The position numbers and the translations under genes were made by a program. From a bacterium (lineage in GTDB: Bacteria; Patescibacteriota; Minisyncoccia; Sungbacterales; SURF-37), in contig JAUSHI010000002.1 of NCBI GenBank assembly GCA_030648055.1, positions 178 through 64,177 of the forward strand: a DNA stretch of 64,000 bases, in the 5' to 3' direction. Of this stretch, positions 46,517-52,167 are shown in pieces. Each line of letters begins with the position of its first letter. The first letter of the stretch is position 1. The notes beneath the pieces are model-generated. The model saw only the letters and a program-made list of their open reading frames with translations. It had not been told where the DNA came from and did no database searches.

Positions 46517-47571
46517 GTGTCCCGAGGAACGCTTCTAAGGAAGATGTAAAACATGCTTATAGAAAGCTGGCGCATTTACATCACCCCGATAAAGCAGGTG
46601 GCAACGAGGCGAAGTTTAAAGAAATTAACGAGGCCTATCAGGTGCTGGGAGATGAAAAGAAGCGTTCACAGTACGACCAATTCGGGCGGGTGTTTGAGGG
46701 GGGCGGCGGAAGTCCTTTTGGCCAAGGCGGGTTTAGTTTTGGAGAAGAGTTTCGGGGTTTCGGCGATTTTGACTTTTCAGATATTTTTGAAGATGTTTTG
46801 GGCGGGATGGGTTTTGCCGGGGGGAAACGCGAGCCGCATTCAAAAAAAGGAAGAGATATACAAATTGATTTGGAAATTCCTTTTGAAGAAATGATTTTTG
46901 GTGGCAAGCACGAAGTATCGTTGCAGAAACTTGGGAAGTGCGAACGTTGCGGAGGGACAGGGGCAGAGGCCGGCTCAAAGATGGTTACGTGCAATACCTG
47001 CCATGGCTCCGGAAAGGTTGAGAAAATCCAACGGACTATTTTGGGTGTGTTTTCGCAAGTGAGCATTTGTTCAACCTGCAATGGTAAGGGCGAGGTGCCT
47101 GAAGTAACATGCAAAAATTGCGGAGGCAGGGGAGTTCTTCGCGCGGAGGATCGTATTGAAATTTTTGTGCCGGCCGGAGTTAATGGTAATGAGCTTCTGA
47201 AAGTTTCTGGAAAAGGCGAGGCGTCAGTTACTGGAGGCGTGCCGGGCGATCTTTTTGTGAAAATTCACGTGATGTCTTCAAAAATTTATAAAAGGCAGAG
47301 TAACGATGTAATTATGATGCTTTCGGTGAAATTTACCGACGCGGCTTTGGGGGCGAAGGTTGATTTGGGAACTCCTGACGGTAAAATCGTGATGAAAATT
47401 CCTGAAGGCACGGAGTCCGGAGATATTTTAAAAGTTCGCGGCAAGGGCGTTCCGCACCTTTCGGGGTACGGCAGGGGAGATCTTTTGATTGAGATTAAAG
47501 TTGAAACGCCCAAGAAACTTTCGCGCAAAGCAAAAGAGATGATTGAAAAATTAAAAGAAGAAGGAGTTTAA
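46489..47571 (+). CDS. dnaJ: chaperone DnaJ
   Basis: J domain with HPD (LAHLHHPDK), a G/F region, and four CxxCxGxG zinc motifs. Confidence 0.96.
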   Translation: MAKDYYKILGVPRNASKEDVKHAYRKLAHLHHPDKAGGNEAKFKEINEAYQVLGDEKKRSQYDQFGRVFEGGGGSPFGQGGFSFGEEFRGFGDFDFSDIFEDVLGGMGFAGGKREPHSKKGRDIQIDLEIPFEEMIFGGKHEVSLQKLGKCERCGGTGAEAGSKMVTCNTCHGSGKVEKIQRTILGVFSQVSICSTCNGKGEVPEVTCKNCGGRGVLRAEDRIEIFVPAGVNGNELLKVSGKGEASVTGGVPGDLFVKIHVMSSKIYKRQSNDVIMMLSVKFTDAALGAKVDLGTPDGKIVMKIPEGTESGDILKVRGKGVPHLSGYGRGDLLIEIKVETPKKLSRKAKEMIEKLKEEGV

Positions 47572-47650
47572 ACGTGGCTGTAAAATTCGCAAAACTCCGG
47601 CGTGTTTTGATAATTGCGCTTGCTATGGTTTTTTATTTCTTTGTAGTTTG

Positions 47651-47717
47651 TTCATTCCAACATTCTCTCTCTTTCGCGCGAGGCTTCGGACGGGCAAGGT
47701 AAGAATGTTGGAATGAA
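47651..47717. repeat. palindrome family copy with a 35-nt insertion at its centre
   Basis: The arms TTCATTCCAACATTCT (47651-66) and AGAATGTTGGAATGAA (47702-17) are separated by CTCTCTTTCGCGCGAGGCTTCGGACGGGCAAGGTA. Confidence 0.8.
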
Positions 47718-48093
47718 AAATGGGCGGGGCAGATGGTTGAGGGCGCTGTGCCGGATAACAAGAACACTCCGCAGTATTGCGGAGTGTTTTGAAATTCAGC
47801 ACCTTTCTGTCATTTCTTGTCTTATCGGATTTATTATTTTCGGCGCTTTGCTTTCCCTTTTTTTGCTTTTTTTGCCATTTTGATTTTTAGATTTAAATGA
47901 GCTAATTAATAAATTTATTCGGGAGCTATTTCCCTCGGCCTTTGGCATAAGTATACCATACTTTTATTGCAATTTTATTTTTTGCAACGCAATGTGTGGA
48001 TAACTTAAGGACGTTTGATTTTTTTCAAAAGCAAGTTATAATTGTTTTGCCCTCAGTTTTTGAAATAAAGATAAATTTTTTACGATTTTTTAC

Positions 48094-48214
48094 GCGCCCA
48101 TAGCTCAGTTGGGTGAGAATCCGTTTAAATAGGATTCTCACGGGCATTGCGAGCAGTCCCGACGTTTTGTCGGGACAGCACAGCACCATGCCCCGGAAGA
48201 GCAGCTCCCTTTTT
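48094..48214 (+). pseudogene. tRNA-Lys 5' fragment (positions 1 to 36) carrying an 86-nt hairpin-rich insertion in the D loop
   Basis: 48094-48112 equals 48536-48554, and 48199-48213 equals 48557-48571 of the intact tRNA-Lys. The insertion 48113-48198 contains GTGAGAATCC..GGATTCTCAC and GTCCCGAC-GTTTT-GTCGGGAC hairpins. Similarity stops after anticodon TTT. Confidence 0.7.
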
Positions 48215-48270
48215 CAGCCAGAGGCTGATCCGCCTTTGGCGGAAAGGAGAAGACCGATTTCAAAAAGCGT

Positions 48271-48513
48271 ATGCCCTATGTCTATGTTCTAAAAAGTTTG
48301 AAAAACGGAAAGCGTTATGTTGGTAGTAGTAATTTGGATCCTCAAGAACGGTTAAAGAAACATAATTCGGGATCAAATAAATTTACAAAAGGAAACAAAC
48401 CATTTATATTGATTTATCAAGAAGGATGCGCATCAGTTAGGAAAGCAAGGCAAAGAGAGAACTTTTTGAAATCCGGCGTTGGTAGGAATTTTCTTGATGA
48501 TATGTTTAAATAA
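48271..48513 (+). CDS. GIY-YIG nuclease domain protein (COG2827/YhbQ-like, 80 aa)
   Basis: PYVYVLKSLKNGKRYVGSSNLDPQERLKKHNSG....RENFLK is the GIY-(x)-YVG..R..H/N..E pattern. Confidence 0.8.
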   Translation: MPYVYVLKSLKNGKRYVGSSNLDPQERLKKHNSGSNKFTKGNKPFILIYQEGCASVRKARQRENFLKSGVGRNFLDDMFK

Positions 48514-48535
48514 TTTTACATTAAACTTTTATTAC

Positions 48536-48608
48536 GCGCCCATAGCTCAGTTGGTAGAGCAGCTCCCTTTTAAGGAGATGGTCGCAGGTTCGAATCCTGC
48601 TGGGCGCA
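48536..48608 (+). tRNA. tRNA-Lys (anticodon UUU), no encoded CCA
   Basis: GCGCCCA-TA-GCTC-AGTTGGTA-GAGC-A-GCTCC-CTTTTAA-GGAGA-TGGTC-GCAGG-TTCGAAT-CCTGC-TGGGCGC-A. Confidence 0.93.
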
Positions 48609-48681
48609 AACAGAGGCTGATCCGCCTTTGGCGGAAAGGAGACGCAAGTTCTGCGCCAGAGGCGCACTCGCCTCAGGCGAG

Positions 48682-48698
48682 GAATCCTGCTGGGCGCA
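48682..48698 (+). repeat. duplicated tRNA-Lys 3' end (17 nt)
   Basis: GAATCCTGCTGGGCGCA is identical to 48592-48608. A 32-nt box CAGAGGCTGATCCGCCTTTGGCGGAAAGGAGA is also duplicated (48219-48250 and 48611-48642). Confidence 0.8.
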
Positions 48699-48801
48699 TT
48701 GAGCAAAGCGAGAAAAGGAATTTTTATAGTGATTTTTTTTATGATGTTAGAATACAAACGCTAAATTTATAAAAATATCAGACGCTTATATAAGTTTTAA
48801 C

Positions 48802-48835
48802 GGGCCTATAGCATAGTGGCAGTGCAGCCGGTTTG
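48802..48835 (+). pseudogene. tRNA-Ala 5' fragment (positions 1-35) of a disrupted older copy
   Basis: GGGCCTATAGCATAGTGGCAGTGCAGCCGGTTTG is 30/34 identical to 49143-49176. Confidence 0.75.
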
Positions 48836-48857
48836 TCCCGATTTATACAAATTTAAA

Positions 48858-49103
48858 ATGTTTTATCTTTATATCTTAAAGTTGGTAAAATATGGGACAT
48901 ATTATATTGGAATTTGTAAGGATATCGGGAGTCGCTTATATCTGCACAATAATGGTAAAGTAAAATCAACAAAATTTAAGAGATCACGGGTACTTATTTG
49001 CACAAAAGAATTTAATATTTTATCTGAAGCTAGAAAATTAGAAATTAAATTGAAATCCATGAAGAAGCGTTCGTATTTAGAGAAGCTGATAAAACATTTC
49101 TAA
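48858..49103 (+). CDS. GIY-YIG nuclease domain protein (81 aa)
   Basis: MFYLYILKLVKYGTYYIGICKDIGSRLYLHNNG...EARKLEIKLK. The ATG at 48858 is preferred over the track GTG at 48816, which lies inside the tRNA fragment. Confidence 0.75.
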   Translation: MFYLYILKLVKYGTYYIGICKDIGSRLYLHNNGKVKSTKFKRSRVLICTKEFNILSEARKLEIKLKSMKKRSYLEKLIKHF

Positions 49104-49142
49104 AATTTGTATATAAATCGAGGATCCTCGTTAAATCGCGGT

Positions 49143-49213
49143 GGGCCCGTAGCATAGTGGTAGTGCATCCGGTTTGCATCCGGAGGGCGGGAGTTCGATT
49201 CTCCCCGGGTCCA
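49143..49213 (+). tRNA. tRNA-Ala (anticodon UGC) with G3:U70
   Basis: GGGCCCG-TA-GCAT-AGTGGTA-GTGC-A-TCCGG-TTTGCAT-CCGGA-GGGC-GGGAG-TTCGATT-CTCCC-CGGGTCC-A. Confidence 0.93.
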
Positions 49214-49240
49214 TTATGGGCCCACCACGATTTATCGGGA

Positions 49241-49265
49241 CATCCGGCGGGCTGGAGTTCCTCCG
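49241..49265 (+). pseudogene. tRNA-Ala 3' fragment (from anticodon position 36 into the T arm) of the disrupted copy
   Basis: CATCCGGCGGGCTGGAGTTCCTCC aligns with CATCCGGAGGGCGGGAGTTCGATTCTCC of the intact gene, with a 4-nt T-loop deletion. Its CCGGC pairs with GCCGG in the 48802 fragment. The acceptor 3' strand is missing. Confidence 0.7.
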
Positions 49266-49366
49266 ATTTTGTCTTCGCTTTGCGGAGTTACAAAATCGAG
49301 AGTCCTCGATGCGATTACCAAATTGAAAATTTGGTTCGCATCGGGAGATTCTCTCATGGTTCATTT

Positions 49367-49404
49367 CACACACAAAAACACCCGCTATGGGTGTTTTTGT
49401 GTGT
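49367..49404 (+). terminator. intrinsic terminator after the tRNA cluster
   Basis: CACACACAAAAACACCC-GCTA-TGGGTGTTTTTGTGTG. Confidence 0.7.
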
Positions 49405-49454
49405 ATAACTAAGTTTTGTTATAGATACTATTATACAATATACTAAGAGAAGTC

Positions 49455-49736
49455 ATGCCTCCGGCCGACAATTTAAAAATAAAATTTATTGCGCTTGCAA
49501 TTTTGGTCATCCTGCTTGTCGCGGCTGGTTTTTGGTATTGGTATCAAAAAAGAGCCAAAGTTCTAAAGGAAACAAGCCGGAGTGCTCAATTTTTTGGGAA
49601 AGTGCAGAATCCGATGGAAAAACTTCCCGAGACCAATCCTTTCAAGGTTCAAAGCAATCCTTTTTCAGCCGACGCTAATCCTTTGAGTAGCTCCAACCCC
49701 TTTAATGAGATCTATAAAAATCCGTTCGGTCAATAA
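49455..49736 (+). CDS. small membrane-anchored protein with NPF repeats
   Basis: 93 aa with an N-terminal TM helix. The C-terminus carries TNPF..SNPF..ANPL..SNPF..KNPF. Confidence 0.55.
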   Translation: MPPADNLKIKFIALAILVILLVAAGFWYWYQKRAKVLKETSRSAQFFGKVQNPMEKLPETNPFKVQSNPFSADANPLSSSNPFNEIYKNPFGQ

Positions 49737-49740
49737 ATTC

Positions 49741-52167
49741 ATGCCAGCCAATATTCAAAAATTACTCTTCAGAGGAATAATATTGTTTGGACTTTTTGCG
49801 GCGGCATTAATAGTGCAGGCGCAAGCGGCCCGCGTCTCTTCCATTACGCTTGAAAAAGGCAGTTCTTTCGGTCTTTTCATATTGACCGTTGCTGACCCCG
49901 ACGGCGTAAGGGAATTCTCACTGCAGCCGCCGGATAAATTCCCCTACGGCGGCGGGGTTAATTGTCCAAAGACATTTAAAAATAATAATGTAATTTTTTC
50001 TCTGGAAGATTTTACTCCGGAGATGACCGCGCATGTGCTTGATTGCAAGGACAATCGCGTTGAGTTCACCATTCTTCCTCCGAAAGACGGCGTTACTCGC
50101 GGTAGTGTAGTAGCCGCCCCTTCTTTGAAGCCAGTTTCAGTGCCAGCCAAACCGGCAGAGGAAGTTAAGAAGCCAGTTGGCGAAGATGAATTTGTTTTTC
50201 CAGTCGCGGAATTGGGAAATTGCAAGAGCGAAGACGATTGCAGAATTTATTGCGAAAGCCCGAGCCATTTCCGAGCCTGTTTAGCGTTTGCCGAAAAGTA
50301 TGACGCGATGAGTAAAGAAGAATTGACCGAGGCAAAGAAATTCGCCAAGGTAGTTGAAGACGGCGGTCCTGGCGGTTGCCGAACCGAGCTGGAATGCCAA
50401 GCGTATTGTGAAAATTCAGACCACTTTGAAGAGTGTGTTGCTTTTGCCGAAAAGTATGATTTGTTAAGTCCGGACGAATTGGCTAACGCCAAAAAGTTTC
50501 TTCCGCTTATTAAATCCGGCGAGATGCCGGGGGGCTGTAAAACCGAAAACGAATGCGAGGCGTATTGCTCGCAAAGCGCGAATTTGGAAGGATGCATTGC
50601 CTTTGCCGAGCGGCACGGCGTTATTTCTGCGAAAGAGCTGGCAGAAGCCAAGAAGTTTCTCCCACTCATTAAATCCGGCCAAACGCCGGGCGGCTGTGAT
50701 AGCAAATTAACATGTGAGACCTACTGCGCCCAGGATAAAAATATGGATGAATGTCTTGCGTTTGCCGAAGAAAATGACATATTGTCGCCCGAAGAACTCC
50801 AAATGGCAAAAAAAATGCTGCCTTTAATGAAGAGCGGCGAAACGCCTGGCGCTTGTAAGAGCCGCGCCTCGTGCGAAGAATATTGCGCAATAGGCATCAA
50901 TATTGATGAGTGTCTTTCTTTCGCGGAAAAACAGGGCCTTATGACCCCCGAAGAACTGGAAGAAGTTAAAAAAATTCTTCCGTTTATGAAATCCGGCGAA
51001 CTACCCGGAGGGTGCACATCAAAAGAGGGCTGTGAGGCGTATTGCGAAGAAGACGACAATCTTGATGAGTGCTTGGCTTTCGCTGAAAAAGCAGGGCTTA
51101 TCTCGCCGGAAGAATTGGAAATAGCCAAAAAAACAGGGGGCAAGGGCCCGGGTGATTGTCGCGGGAGAGCGTGCGCAACATTTTGCGAAGACCCCGATAA
51201 TTTTATTATTTGCCGTGAATGGGCAGAAAAAAATGGTTTTACTGACGAGCTTTCCGGTACTTTAAGCAAAGGCGGGTTTACGGGTGGTCCGGGAGGATGC
51301 AAAACTGTTGAAGAATGCCAGGCATTTTGTCAGGAGAACCCGGATAAATGCCCTGGCCCGGGAAAACAAGGCCAGCATTGTTGCATTTCCCCAATTCCGG
51401 AATTAGAGGATAATTTACCGGGTTGTATTAAGTATTGCCAGGGGAATCCGGAAAATTGTCGAAAAGCAGAAGAAGCGTGGTGCCTGGATAATCCGGAATA
51501 TTGTCCTGATGGAAAGTTTGTTCCGCAGTGTGGTAATGGCGGCTCGGGTGGCGACTCCGGAGGAGGCCCAGGCGGATGCAAATCCCCAGAGGAATGCCAA
51601 GCTTATTGTCAGGAACATCCGGCAGAATGCGGCATCGGTGGAGGCGGGGGTGCCGGTGGTGGTCCTTCAAGAGGTGGGGGTGGACCGCCGCCAAACTGCT
51701 CCTTTGAGGAATTAAATCCTGTCTGCGCAGCAGTGAGTCCAGGTAAACATCACACTTTTAATAACGAATGCTTTGCGAAAGCTTTTGGAGCCACAAACCT
51801 GCGGCCGGGAGTCTGCCCCGGAGATGTACCCTGTTCGACGGTTCGTGATCCGGTCTGTGCTGTTAAAAGCGGAGCCACTAGGAGCTATTTCAATGGGTGT
51901 GCCGCCGAAGGAGACGACGCGGGAATTCTCTATGCGGGTGAGTGTAAAACCGATGGACCGCTACCATCCGTGGTGCCTCAGTTCCCAACATCAGGAGGAC
52001 AACCACCCACCATTCCTACCCCCGCACAAATCCAGCAACAAATAGAACAGCAAATTCAACAACAAGTTGATTGTTCTCTTTTCGCTTCCGTGCCGGAATG
52101 TTCTTTTGCGGGTCCAGAAGGTTCGCAAAACTACAACCACTGCAAACAGTGTTATCCGGATAAATAA
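49741..52167 (+). CDS. secreted Cys-rich repeat protein with two C-terminal Kazal-like modules
   Basis: Signal peptide. 7 full and 2 truncated repeats of about 48 aa (PGGC-x5-C-x2-YC-x7-C-x2-FAEK..S.EEL..AKK). The Kazal-like modules are C-x7-PVC-x13-C-x14-C, twice. Gly-rich and Gln-rich tails follow. Confidence 0.8.
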   Translation: MPANIQKLLFRGIILFGLFAAALIVQAQAARVSSITLEKGSSFGLFILTVADPDGVREFSLQPPDKFPYGGGVNCPKTFKNNNVIFSLEDFTPEMTAHVLDCKDNRVEFTILPPKDGVTRGSVVAAPSLKPVSVPAKPAEEVKKPVGEDEFVFPVAELGNCKSEDDCRIYCESPSHFRACLAFAEKYDAMSKEELTEAKKFAKVVEDGGPGGCRTELECQAYCENSDHFEECVAFAEKYDLLSPDELANAKKFLPLIKSGEMPGGCKTENECEAYCSQSANLEGCIAFAERHGVISAKELAEAKKFLPLIKSGQTPGGCDSKLTCETYCAQDKNMDECLAFAEENDILSPEELQMAKKMLPLMKSGETPGACKSRASCEEYCAIGINIDECLSFAEKQGLMTPEELEEVKKILPFMKSGELPGGCTSKEGCEAYCEEDDNLDECLAFAEKAGLISPEELEIAKKTGGKGPGDCRGRACATFCEDPDNFIICREWAEKNGFTDELSGTLSKGGFTGGPGGCKTVEECQAFCQENPDKCPGPGKQGQHCCISPIPELEDNLPGCIKYCQGNPENCRKAEEAWCLDNPEYCPDGKFVPQCGNGGSGGDSGGGPGGCKSPEECQAYCQEHPAECGIGGGGGAGGGPSRGGGGPPPNCSFEELNPVCAAVSPGKHHTFNNECFAKAFGATNLRPGVCPGDVPCSTVRDPVCAVKSGATRSYFNGCAAEGDDAGILYAGECKTDGPLPSVVPQFPTSGGQPPTIPTPAQIQQQIEQQIQQQVDCSLFASVPECSFAGPEGSQNYNHCKQCYPDK

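Follow-up and report, generated by a model that had tools for sequence, protein, structure and literature searches.

Genomic islands and prophages that integrate into transfer RNA (tRNA) genes carry a partial copy of the tRNA gene, so that integration restores an intact gene and leaves an incomplete second copy at the far end. These elements are of kilobase scale, use a tyrosine or serine recombinase, and have their crossover in the 3' half of the gene. For organelles, Paquin et al. reportedly described in 1994 and 2000 free-standing homing-endonuclease open reading frames (ORFs) that carry a replacement end of the invaded gene, the displaced piece being left as a pseudogene. The phage T4 protein SegB, which comprises roughly 200 residues and several domains, is encoded between tRNA genes and is not known to duplicate or replace its target. 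SegB is a free-standing GIY-YIG homing endonuclease of the tRNA cluster, whose site of 27 base pairs (bp) contains a conserved T-stem-loop motif; it spreads its own gene and the neighboring tRNA genes by break repair (PMC2330249). In the candidate phyla radiation (CPR), GIY-YIG-encoding insertions that are not introns occur in ribosomal RNA (rRNA) genes (J Bacteriol 2024, PMC11270868); they match neither group I nor group II introns, and most of them lie at the tips or bases of stem-loops. In Patescibacteria, positions 35/36 of the genes for tRNA-Asn and for tRNA-Asp harbor group I introns that are missed by standard tRNA finders; these are self-splicing IA ribozymes, their 5' exons end with U, and the few endonucleases are of the HNH type (mSystems 2026, PMC13011429). 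Short double-hairpin elements without flanking duplications are described for Allomyces in PMC2800124, which cites the paper of 2000. Here, we compare with these systems a locus of the bacterial contig JAUSHI010000002.1, of which a stretch of 64,000 nucleotides (nt), in the following the window, was analyzed: a tRNA-Ala gene is split in its anticodon by a 405-nt cassette, which encodes a GIY-YIG nuclease and carries a complete tRNA-Ala of its own.

In the 64-kb window, ARAGORN and Rfam found only three tRNA genes, two of which (Lys and Ala) adjoin. At the Ala locus, whose genes all lie on the forward strand, the outer tRNA-Ala(UGC) begins with positions 1-35 (48802-48835) and ends at the anticodon base G35. 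This piece is identical in 30 of 34 positions (88%, repeat D4; blastn-short E=4e-7 in a 1.9-kb search space) to the first 34 nt of the inner tRNA-Ala and is part of the tRNA that ARAGORN recognized after removal of the inserts. Between G35 and C36 lies the cassette (48836-49240) with the ends TCCCGAT (48836-48842) and ATCGGGA (49234-49240); thereafter, the gene continues with positions 36-56 (CATCCGGCGGGCTGGAGTTC, 49241-49260), which match the inner copy in 18 of 20 nt (E=0.006). The cassette consists of two hairpin modules. Module A contains the ORF of the nuclease (48858-49103, 81 amino acids plus stop codon), which is a minimal UPF0213/Slx1-like protein with a Pfam PF01541 domain and the only sizeable sense-strand ORF within 48836-49240; the inverted repeat I2 (48839-48854 versus 49103-49120) surrounds it. 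Module B contains the inner, intact tRNA-Ala(UGC) with the G3:U70 pair (49143-49213; Rfam 68.4 bits, also called by ARAGORN), which is presumed to be the working copy and is enclosed by a 23-nt leader/trailer inverted repeat (I3, 49129-49151 and 49215-49237). The two modules join at the central palindrome ATCGAGGATCCTCG (49117-49130), the best-conserved non-coding motif of the family, whose columns are invariant in the alignment A2 of the short copies introduced below. At pair 27:43 of the anticodon stem, the outer copy has G:C and the inner one T:A; this compensated exchange suggests that the split and the complete tRNA-Ala are different functional alleles. An earlier note on this DNA had listed the break after G35 with its continuation at 49241, the insert and its ends, the ORF, both inverted repeats, the complete inner tRNA-Ala, and the compensated stem of a different allele, and our analysis agrees with it on each of these points.

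The same note had described the outer gene as lacking four nucleotides of the T loop and the whole 3' acceptor strand. This was not borne out, as the gene resumes behind a second, 86-nt insert (49261-49346). The resumed 3' end GATTCTCTCATGGTTCA (49347-49363, forward strand; identified by ARAGORN on the joined pieces) comprises the remaining T loop, the 3' strands of the T stem and of the acceptor stem, and the discriminator base. The feature thus extends from 48802 to 49363 and not only to 49265. The 86-nt insert, which encodes neither a protein nor a tRNA, is located in the outer T loop after GGAGTTC, i.e. the T stem and the first three T-loop bases; in L130, one of the related loci introduced below, an insert occupies the equivalent position. 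With its ends CTCCGAT...ATCGGGA, it is a miniature of the 405-nt cassette: the ends and the central motif (AAATCGAGAGTCCTCGAT versus AAATCGAGGATCCTCG) are shared, and short hairpin loops replace the ORF and the tRNA. It aligns with six other short copies. When the three outer pieces were joined, the resulting 71 nt were called by ARAGORN with default settings as tRNA-Ala(UGC), with two mismatched pairs at the acceptor-stem base and a third mismatch in the T stem. Given this call and the few stem mismatches, the outer tRNA-Ala gives the impression of an early stage of decay rather than of truncation. Directly 3' of it, a perfect, terminator-like hairpin of 16 bp follows on the forward strand (49368-49404, inverted repeat I6); comparable hairpins come after the outer genes of L120, L130, and L146.

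Two further observations concern the edges of the inserts. The sequence GGAG TTC CTCC at 49253-49265, read in the earlier note as a shortened T arm, forms an accidental hairpin, made up of the 5' strand of the outer T stem and the first bases of the short element, and was likewise flagged by the terminator scan. Between the inner tRNA-Ala and the trailer, a short spacer is followed by an extra acceptor 3' strand (49215-49233, GGGCCCACC; in L004 at 525-545, CGGTCCGGC), which is also present in L149 and L152. It resembles what would be left of a previous cargo tRNA, which suggests that the cargo can be swapped by recombination.

The labels L003-L231 denote homologous or related loci from other assemblies; all coordinates given without a label refer to the window. 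At least 13 further CPR assemblies carry the Ala element at G35|C36 of a tRNA-Ala gene with the anticodon UGC or CGC. A GIY-YIG ORF is present at this site in L004/L003/L005, L006, L120, L128, L130, L134, L138, L142, L143, L145, L146, and L149, and L152 is an ORF-less version of the element. The closest proteins (58-62% identical) led to L003-L006; for the five proteins measured (L003/L004/L005, L006, and L120), the identity to the Ala nuclease of the window is 54-62%. Most of these relatives possess the inner tRNA-Ala and the ends T(C/T)CCGAT..TCGG(G/A)A. Ends and modules are as in the window in L004, L120, L128, L130, L138, L142, L145, L146, and L149, the right end being degenerate or not recovered in L120, L128, and L134. 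In complete elements, module A reads TCCCGAT...ORF...ATCGAGGA and module B TCCTCGAT-leader-tRNA-trailer-ATCGGGA. The module stems vary in sequence from locus to locus and retain their complementarity, as is evident from the leader/trailer pairs of the window (AAATCGCGG/CCACGATTT), of L004 (AAATAATGCC/GGCATTATTT), and of L142 (ATAGTTCTGG/CCAGAGCTAT). The 3' flank of ORF-bearing Ala elements always begins with CA. As this architecture recurs at the same nucleotide in independent assemblies from JGI, ENA, NCBI, and Logan, an assembly artifact or a chance similarity can be ruled out. Note that the pattern used for metagenomes had only 14 specified bases, so that nearly all of its matches were due to chance; the two real ones are L120 and L025.

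In L128 (1850-2532), the nesting is twofold: the inner tRNA-Ala is itself split at 35/36 by a second element, which contains an innermost intact tRNA-Ala. The outermost gene carries a short copy in its D loop and the ORF-bearing element, the second, inner element is ORF-less, and the contig stops before the 3' pieces of the split genes. Inner copies are therefore targets for further invasion. The short ORF-less copies have a length of 67-90 nt. Seven of them can be aligned with invariant ends and central palindrome (A2); all seven fold as two hairpins, and their flanks exhibit no target duplication. Among outer genes, they reside in the D loops of L120, L128, L136, and L149 and in the T loops of the window, L130, and L149; in L025, a short copy is located in a plain intergenic spacer. 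With adjacent hairpins, dispersed copies, conserved ends, and no target duplication, they have the characteristics of double-hairpin or palindromic miniature mobile elements. Since L152 and the short copies keep the element ends and hairpins, they are degenerate elements; plain duplication decay, which the earlier note had set against its own view, does not describe them.

For 11 outer genes, the inserts were removed in silico. ARAGORN called seven of the resulting sequences (window Ala, L004, L120, L130, L142, L146, L212) and found no tRNA in the other four (window Lys, L138, L143, L145). Without their inserts, the outer genes of L004, L120, L142, and L146 are perfect; the one of L120 has a second insert in the D loop and an encoded CCA. 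In L146, the T arms of outer and inner copy differ with compensation, and in L130 the outer exons agree at 100% with the inner copy across 56 nt. At the other end of the range, the outer T loop of L138 is replaced by a 20-nt hairpin and the anticodon stems of L143 and L145 are destroyed, and no excision restores these genes. The outer genes form a decay series from perfect to irreparable.

Both nucleases of the window, the one described above and a second one upstream at a tRNA-Lys locus, exceed the PF01541 cut-off of 22.6 bits, with 38.7 bits (E=1.3e-9) for the Ala ORF and 56.6 bits (E=3.3e-15) for the Lys ORF. In the protein alignment A1, residues Y3, Y5, Y16, G18, R26, H30, N31, and E62 are invariant; judged from the family, these are presumably catalytic-type residues, and the nuclease looks functional. 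The nearest solved structures are the UPF0213 proteins BH0048 (PDB 1ZG2, E=1.5e-10) and EF2693 (PDB 1YWL, E=4.8e-10). An exact-sequence look-up of both window nucleases gave no record; with one short query, 1346 cluster representatives were found at E<=1e-3, and a scan of species-representative genomes yielded at least 547 confirmed relatives. From a scan of one genome per species with the protein alignment as query, 80 loci of the wider family were studied. In 65 of these, a complete tRNA on the same strand is located within 150 nt of the nuclease ORF, which is downstream of the ORF in 52 cases; the tRNA density of the window lets one expect about 1%. These tRNAs represent 14 isotypes, and several of the remaining loci contain tRNA fragments. 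Family members are hosted by CPR groups, Bacteroidota, Gammaproteobacteria, Elusimicrobia, Pirellulales, and others. The nuclease ORF is flanked by fragments of the same tRNA, often with 100% identity, and the breakpoints are specific for the isotype: the fragment comprises Gly(GCC) 1-25/26 in four genomes, Cys 1-33 in three, and Tyr 1-35 in two.

In Bacteroidota loci, the complete tRNA lies upstream and a 3' fragment downstream of the ORF. For example, the cultured Mucilaginibacter straminoryzae RS28 (L150, 1860-2330) has a complete tRNA-Leu with terminator, the ORF, the hairpin GTCCCGATTTACATCGGGAT, which is of the TCCCGAT..ATCGGGA type, and a duplicated part of the tRNA-Leu (45-87) with the same terminator. 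A family member also occurs in the cultured Pedobacter puniceum HX-22-1 (L165). The element motifs cross phyla. Many unrelated loci have split tRNA copies whose anticodon or T loops are replaced or interrupted by GC-rich hairpins, single or double, with a length of 18-35 nt (L153, 1950-1986; L199, 1956-1990; L138, 2388-2407; L143; L148, 1971-1988); these could be mobile mini-palindromes or repair footprints.

In the nearest relatives that lack a tRNA, the same type of element splits the first codons of protein genes, namely rpmE, which encodes ribosomal protein L31 (L135, 1980-2580), topA (L139), and the gene of a 578-residue CxxC protein (L127, L129, L131). In all these loci, a 5' fragment lies upstream and the complete gene downstream of the element; the copies of L127 and L129 sit between paralogous genes of about 560-590 codons in one Nomurabacteria genome. 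The split and the complete rpmE copy of L135 differ in 5 of 34 nt, and four of these exchanges are synonymous; these are two functional alleles, as one would expect of a foreign replacement that arrived with the element.

The Ala locus is not a singular case. The nuclease family is linked to tRNAs across phyla, and a tRNA-Lys locus 700 nt upstream (48094-48698) has the same nested design with a GIY-YIG ORF of its own. Here, the outer tRNA-Lys(UUU) is broken by three inserts, in the D loop, the anticodon loop, and the T loop. All genes are again on the forward strand. The 5' part of the outer gene (48094-48250; repeats D5, D10, D3) is composed of positions 1-19 (48094-48112), a D-loop insert of about 82 nt (48113-48194), the 3' side of the D arm up to U36 (positions about 20-36, 48195-48213), the 30-nt double hairpin TCAGCCAGAGGCTGA TCCGCCTTTGGCGGA at 36/37 (48214-48243), and AAGGAGA (48244-48250). 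Then follow the Lys-type GIY-YIG ORF of 80 amino acids (48271-48513) and the inner, intact tRNA-Lys(UUU) (48536-48608; Rfam 74.9 bits, ARAGORN). The 3' part of the outer gene (48611-48698; repeats D3, D12) begins with a partial double hairpin (48611-48635) and AAGGAGA (48636-48642), and continues with CGCAAGTTC (48643-48651), another double hairpin within the T loop (48652-48681), and the last 17 nt GAATCCTGCTGGGCGCA (48682-48698), which are 100% identical to the inner copy. Segments 48219-48250 and 48611-48642 constitute an exact direct repeat of 32 nt (D3). The outer tRNA-Lys is dead, because it has a 4-nt deletion in the variable loop and a mismatch in the T stem; after insert removal ARAGORN called no tRNA. 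In intron mode, the program did not recognize the outer genes and proposed for 48094-48608 a tRNA-Leu, which is spurious. Within the D-loop insert, a 10-bp hairpin GTGAGAATCC..GGATTCTCAC precedes GTCCCGACGTTTTGTCGGGAC (about 48158-48178), in which two Ala-type terminal repeats are joined by 5 nt; the latter may represent the footprint of an excision or else a hairpin copy of minimal size.

Homologues of the Lys-type nuclease, 73% and 74% identical, were found in two sets of contigs. All of those examined precede a tRNA-Lys(UUU), and the flanking tRNA-Lys copy contains the same double hairpin at 36/37; TCAGCCAGAGGCTGA TCCGCCTTTGGCGGA is present at the equivalent site in L212-L231. In a Giovannonibacteria locus, a 100-nt unit, consisting of the spacer and the tRNA-Lys 3' part split by the double hairpin, occurs in one, three, or at least four tandem copies, depending on the sample (L212, L213, L217, L218, about 1840-2160). 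This copy-number polymorphism within one population is DNA-level turnover seen directly.

The region of about 520 nt after dnaJ (47572-48093) contains no convincing gene, and the spacer 47572-48094 holds no further significant tRNA fragments; it does contain an inverted repeat of 19 bp (47648-47666/47702-47720) and a GC-rich hairpin of 11 bp (47763-47788). Just downstream of the Ala locus, an ORF of 820 codons (49705-52167) encodes many Cys-rich repeats of about 45 residues (..GGC.(T/S)E.EC.AYC....ECL(A/S)FAE..).

Several other identities of the Ala insert were considered and rejected. A self-splicing intron fold, which the earlier note had named among the findings that would refute its interpretation, did not emerge: in 47500-50000, no Rfam intron family (group I or group II) and no other plausible Rfam family matched at E<=10, and at gathering thresholds the whole window contains neither group I or II introns nor other such RNA families. 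The 5' exon ends with ..TTTG and the insert with ..GGGA, and the boundary cannot be shifted; a 5' exon ending with G and an insert ending with A contradict the rules for group I introns, which call for U and G, respectively. A tRNA intron of the bulge-helix-bulge type, in which a 4-bp helix separates two 3-nt bulges with the splice sites, is rejected since both junctions (G35-TCCCGAT and ATCGGGA-C36) face each other in one continuous helix. An archaeal origin was dismissed as well, because DnaB, FtsK, DnaK, and CysS match bacterial models. Summed over 14 elements, the fold energies of the hairpins are -493.1 and -493.7 kcal/mol for the two strands, and the numbers of G-U pairs are 24 and 27. 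This equal folding points to DNA palindromes rather than to selected RNA structure. An integrase-type integrative element does not fit, as no site-specific recombinase is encoded within 48836-49240. Membership in the T4 Seg group, finally, is contradicted by the size of the proteins (80-81 residues) and by the Pfam family SegE_GIY-YIG, which matched the Lys ORF only and with E=0.054; moreover, a tblastn search of 50,697 phage records gave no match. The resemblance to SegB that the earlier note had seen is hence one of logic and not one of family.

The reading we prefer, with a probability of about 0.65, is that of a DNA-level homing-type cassette which breaks an essential gene and supplies the replacement. 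Segment 48802-49363 would once have been a single tRNA-Ala(UGC) gene, interrupted twice by one family of palindromic double-hairpin mobile elements, and the inner tRNA-Ala(UGC) would now perform the work of the broken gene. The nuclease, probably an active DNA endonuclease, would cut a cassette-free target at a ..TG|CA.. site; repair of this break would use a carrier allele as template and thereby copy the cassette, the flanking tRNA halves serving as homology. This would be homing without an intron, and the element would have moved by repair-mediated copying rather than by transposition. The cassette would bring along its own tRNA or, in sister families, just the displaced part of the gene; the essential function would therefore never be lost and the insertion would be tolerated. 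Subsequently, the split copy would decay and gather further short copies. As in homing, the nuclease ORF occupies one defined site (G35|C36 of tRNA-Ala) in different genomes. The claim of the earlier note that a selfish cassette supplies a replacement copy has gained from the occurrence of the same element at this site in the other CPR assemblies, from the re-invasion in L128, from the decay series, and from the lack of a ribozyme.

Several findings weigh against a homing cassette. No empty allele of the exact locus was recovered via dnaJ synteny in five loci from four relatives: in L207-L211, whose DnaJ proteins are 72-84% identical, no tRNA genes follow dnaJ, so that the entire tRNA block at this position is specific to the lineage (the closest DnaJ relatives of the window are labeled Candidatus Sungbacteria). 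Mobility is thus inferred from distribution and not from presence and absence; indirect hints of empty target alleles come from the nested invasion of L128 and from a cassette-free tRNA-Lys in L120. The outer target is disrupted, but the inner tRNA keeps the target sequence around 35/36: compared with the reconstructed target, it deviates in one or two positions of the stems in the window and in L120, and is identical over 56 nt in L130. In the window, pair 27:43 is the only difference around 35/36, which offers none of the protection that the carrier allele has in homing; a simple sequence-specific enzyme should therefore cut its own cargo. The site specificity of an 81-residue protein without DNA-binding domain is unexplained. 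The short copies at non-homologous sites in D loops, T loops, and a spacer look more like transposition, and the fragments and complete copies that are 100% identical in many loci require very recent events or gene conversion. Lastly, seven of 11 outer genes are still formally intact, an outcome likewise expected under selection for a spliced product.

These difficulties, namely the identity of the inner site, the missing DNA-binding domain, the non-homologous short copies, and the identical copies, keep alive a variant in which the nuclease is guided by structure. Here, the Slx1-like protein would read the shape of DNA (hairpins, cruciforms, the cloverleaf-like four-way junction) and would not home; double-hairpin elements, ORF-less copies in trans included, would enter the loops of tRNA genes and other palindromic sites, and the replacement tRNA would merely make insertions in essential genes survivable. 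We regard this variant as unlikely, even though it accounts for inserts in all three loops of outer tRNAs (D loop in L120, L128, L136, L149; anticodon loop; T loop in the window, L130, L149) and for the one in a spacer (L025). The element stems, varying and yet staying complementary, indicate selection on shape; the nearest relatives of the small protein include the structure-specific SLX1, target-site duplications were not seen, and the family is associated with 14 tRNA isotypes. However, ORF-bearing Ala elements always sit at 35/36 with a 3' flank CA, which argues for recognition of sequence too, and the rpmE and topA targets have no obvious hairpin at the site. An explanation without any mobility, i.e. 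recombination scars next to a host nuclease co-transcribed with tRNAs, the fragments having arisen by local tandem duplication, slippage, and decay, appears very improbable to us. It would suit the tandem 100-nt units varying from one to at least four copies between samples (L212, L213, L217), the arrays in L140 and L160, the frequent identity of fragment and complete copy, and an inner copy that is not visibly immune. It does not agree with a breakpoint shared to the nucleotide by tRNA-Ala genes of different alleles and anticodons, with terminal inverted repeats and a central palindrome conserved across phyla up to the cultured Mucilaginibacter, with the nested second invasion in L128, with the same element in rpmE, topA, and another protein gene, with split and complete copies that are distinct functional alleles, or with closely related nucleases in unrelated genomic contexts.

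Removal of the inserts at the RNA level is the alternative to which we attach least weight, and we consider it very improbable. In this case, the inserts would be excised from the outer tRNA transcript by a protein endonuclease (perhaps the GIY-YIG protein itself) and an RNA ligase, the terminal helices bringing the exon ends together, and we would be dealing with a bacterial protein-dependent tRNA splicing system. The helix of the insert ends does bring the ends of the exons next to one another, and good folding is obtained for the whole region of 563 nt (z=-7.8). Taking out up to three inserts yields a valid tRNA for seven of 11 outer genes. There is also a promoter-like site ahead of the outer Lys gene, the outer genes are followed by hairpins, and the 56 identical nt of L130 point in the same direction. 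Nevertheless, the four other outer genes (window Lys, L138, L143, L145) cannot be restored by any excision, most family members have a one-sided fragment only, and the hairpins lack a strand bias in energy or G-U pairs; for these three reasons, RNA-level removal is unlikely. Moreover, the intact inner copy makes the outer one redundant, neither a bulge-helix-bulge motif nor a match to a ribozyme family was found, and the split-fragment tandem arrays, whose copy number varies between samples, result from a process at the DNA level.

If the reading as a homing-type cassette is correct, a very large family of tiny nucleases, so far functionless, would obtain a concrete biological role. The element would exemplify a compact break-and-replace strategy, in which 0.4 kb of DNA settle inside an essential single-copy gene with the substitute on board; in bacterial chromosomes, this would be a logic like that of a gene drive. 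Horizontal exchange together with the cassette is predicted for tRNA alleles and for the 5' ends of rpmE, topA, and other genes. The reading would also account for fragmented or nested tRNA genes and for tRNAs that seem to be missing, all of which confuse the annotation of CPR and Bacteroidota genomes. A site- or structure-specific nuclease of 81 residues would rank among the smallest known and might serve as a tool. A broader generalization is tentative and, in our view, rather doubtful: the 80-residue Slx1-like GIY-YIG proteins, of which thousands are annotated as 'GIY-YIG nuclease family protein', may drive an unrecognized class of bacterial mobile DNA, which is shape-targeted (to the loops of hairpins or of the cloverleaf extruded by tRNA genes), survives in essential genes owing to the replacement it carries, mobilizes ORF-less copies in trans, and replaces tRNA alleles horizontally across phyla.

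With respect to the systems introduced at the beginning, the logic of a homing cassette is already known. In the full-text literature searched, which leaves out most subscription journals, minimal GIY-YIG cassettes that sit in a tRNA gene and bring a replacement tRNA did not turn up. The UPF0213 proteins 1ZG2 and 1YWL have the same size as the window nuclease and, likewise, no accessory domain, as can be seen from a survey of the superfamily (BMC Genomics 2006, PMC1564403); a term search of this survey revealed no passage tying Slx1-like standalone domains to tRNA genes or to mobility. The CPR rRNA insertions, compared by description only, share with the window element the host group, the nuclease superfamily, and the position of a non-intron insert in the gene of a structured RNA. 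They differ in that a fragmented rRNA can still work after the insert has been excised, whereas the target in the window is a tRNA, which does not tolerate a break, and a full substitute is carried along. SegB and the window proteins are both of the GIY-YIG type, with tRNA genes as the target or, for the window proteins, as the presumed target; the latter proteins have only 80-81 residues. With the tRNA introns of Patescibacteria, the element has in common the phylum and the unusual position 35/36; in contrast to them, it matches no ribozyme, follows a 5' exon ending with G, ends itself with A, and contains a second tRNA. Unlike the integrase-dependent islands, it comprises 0.4 kb, encodes just an 81-residue nuclease, has its breakpoints in loops, and can be nested. 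The organellar endonuclease ORFs are found in mitochondrial protein genes, usually at the 3' ends; the family described here occurs in bacterial chromosomes, mostly in tRNA genes, and sometimes the whole gene is replaced and nested within the element. As far as could be established, what is new is an 81-residue nuclease in a double-hairpin element as carrier, bacterial chromosomal tRNA genes as targets, a complete nested replacement, and the breadth across phyla.

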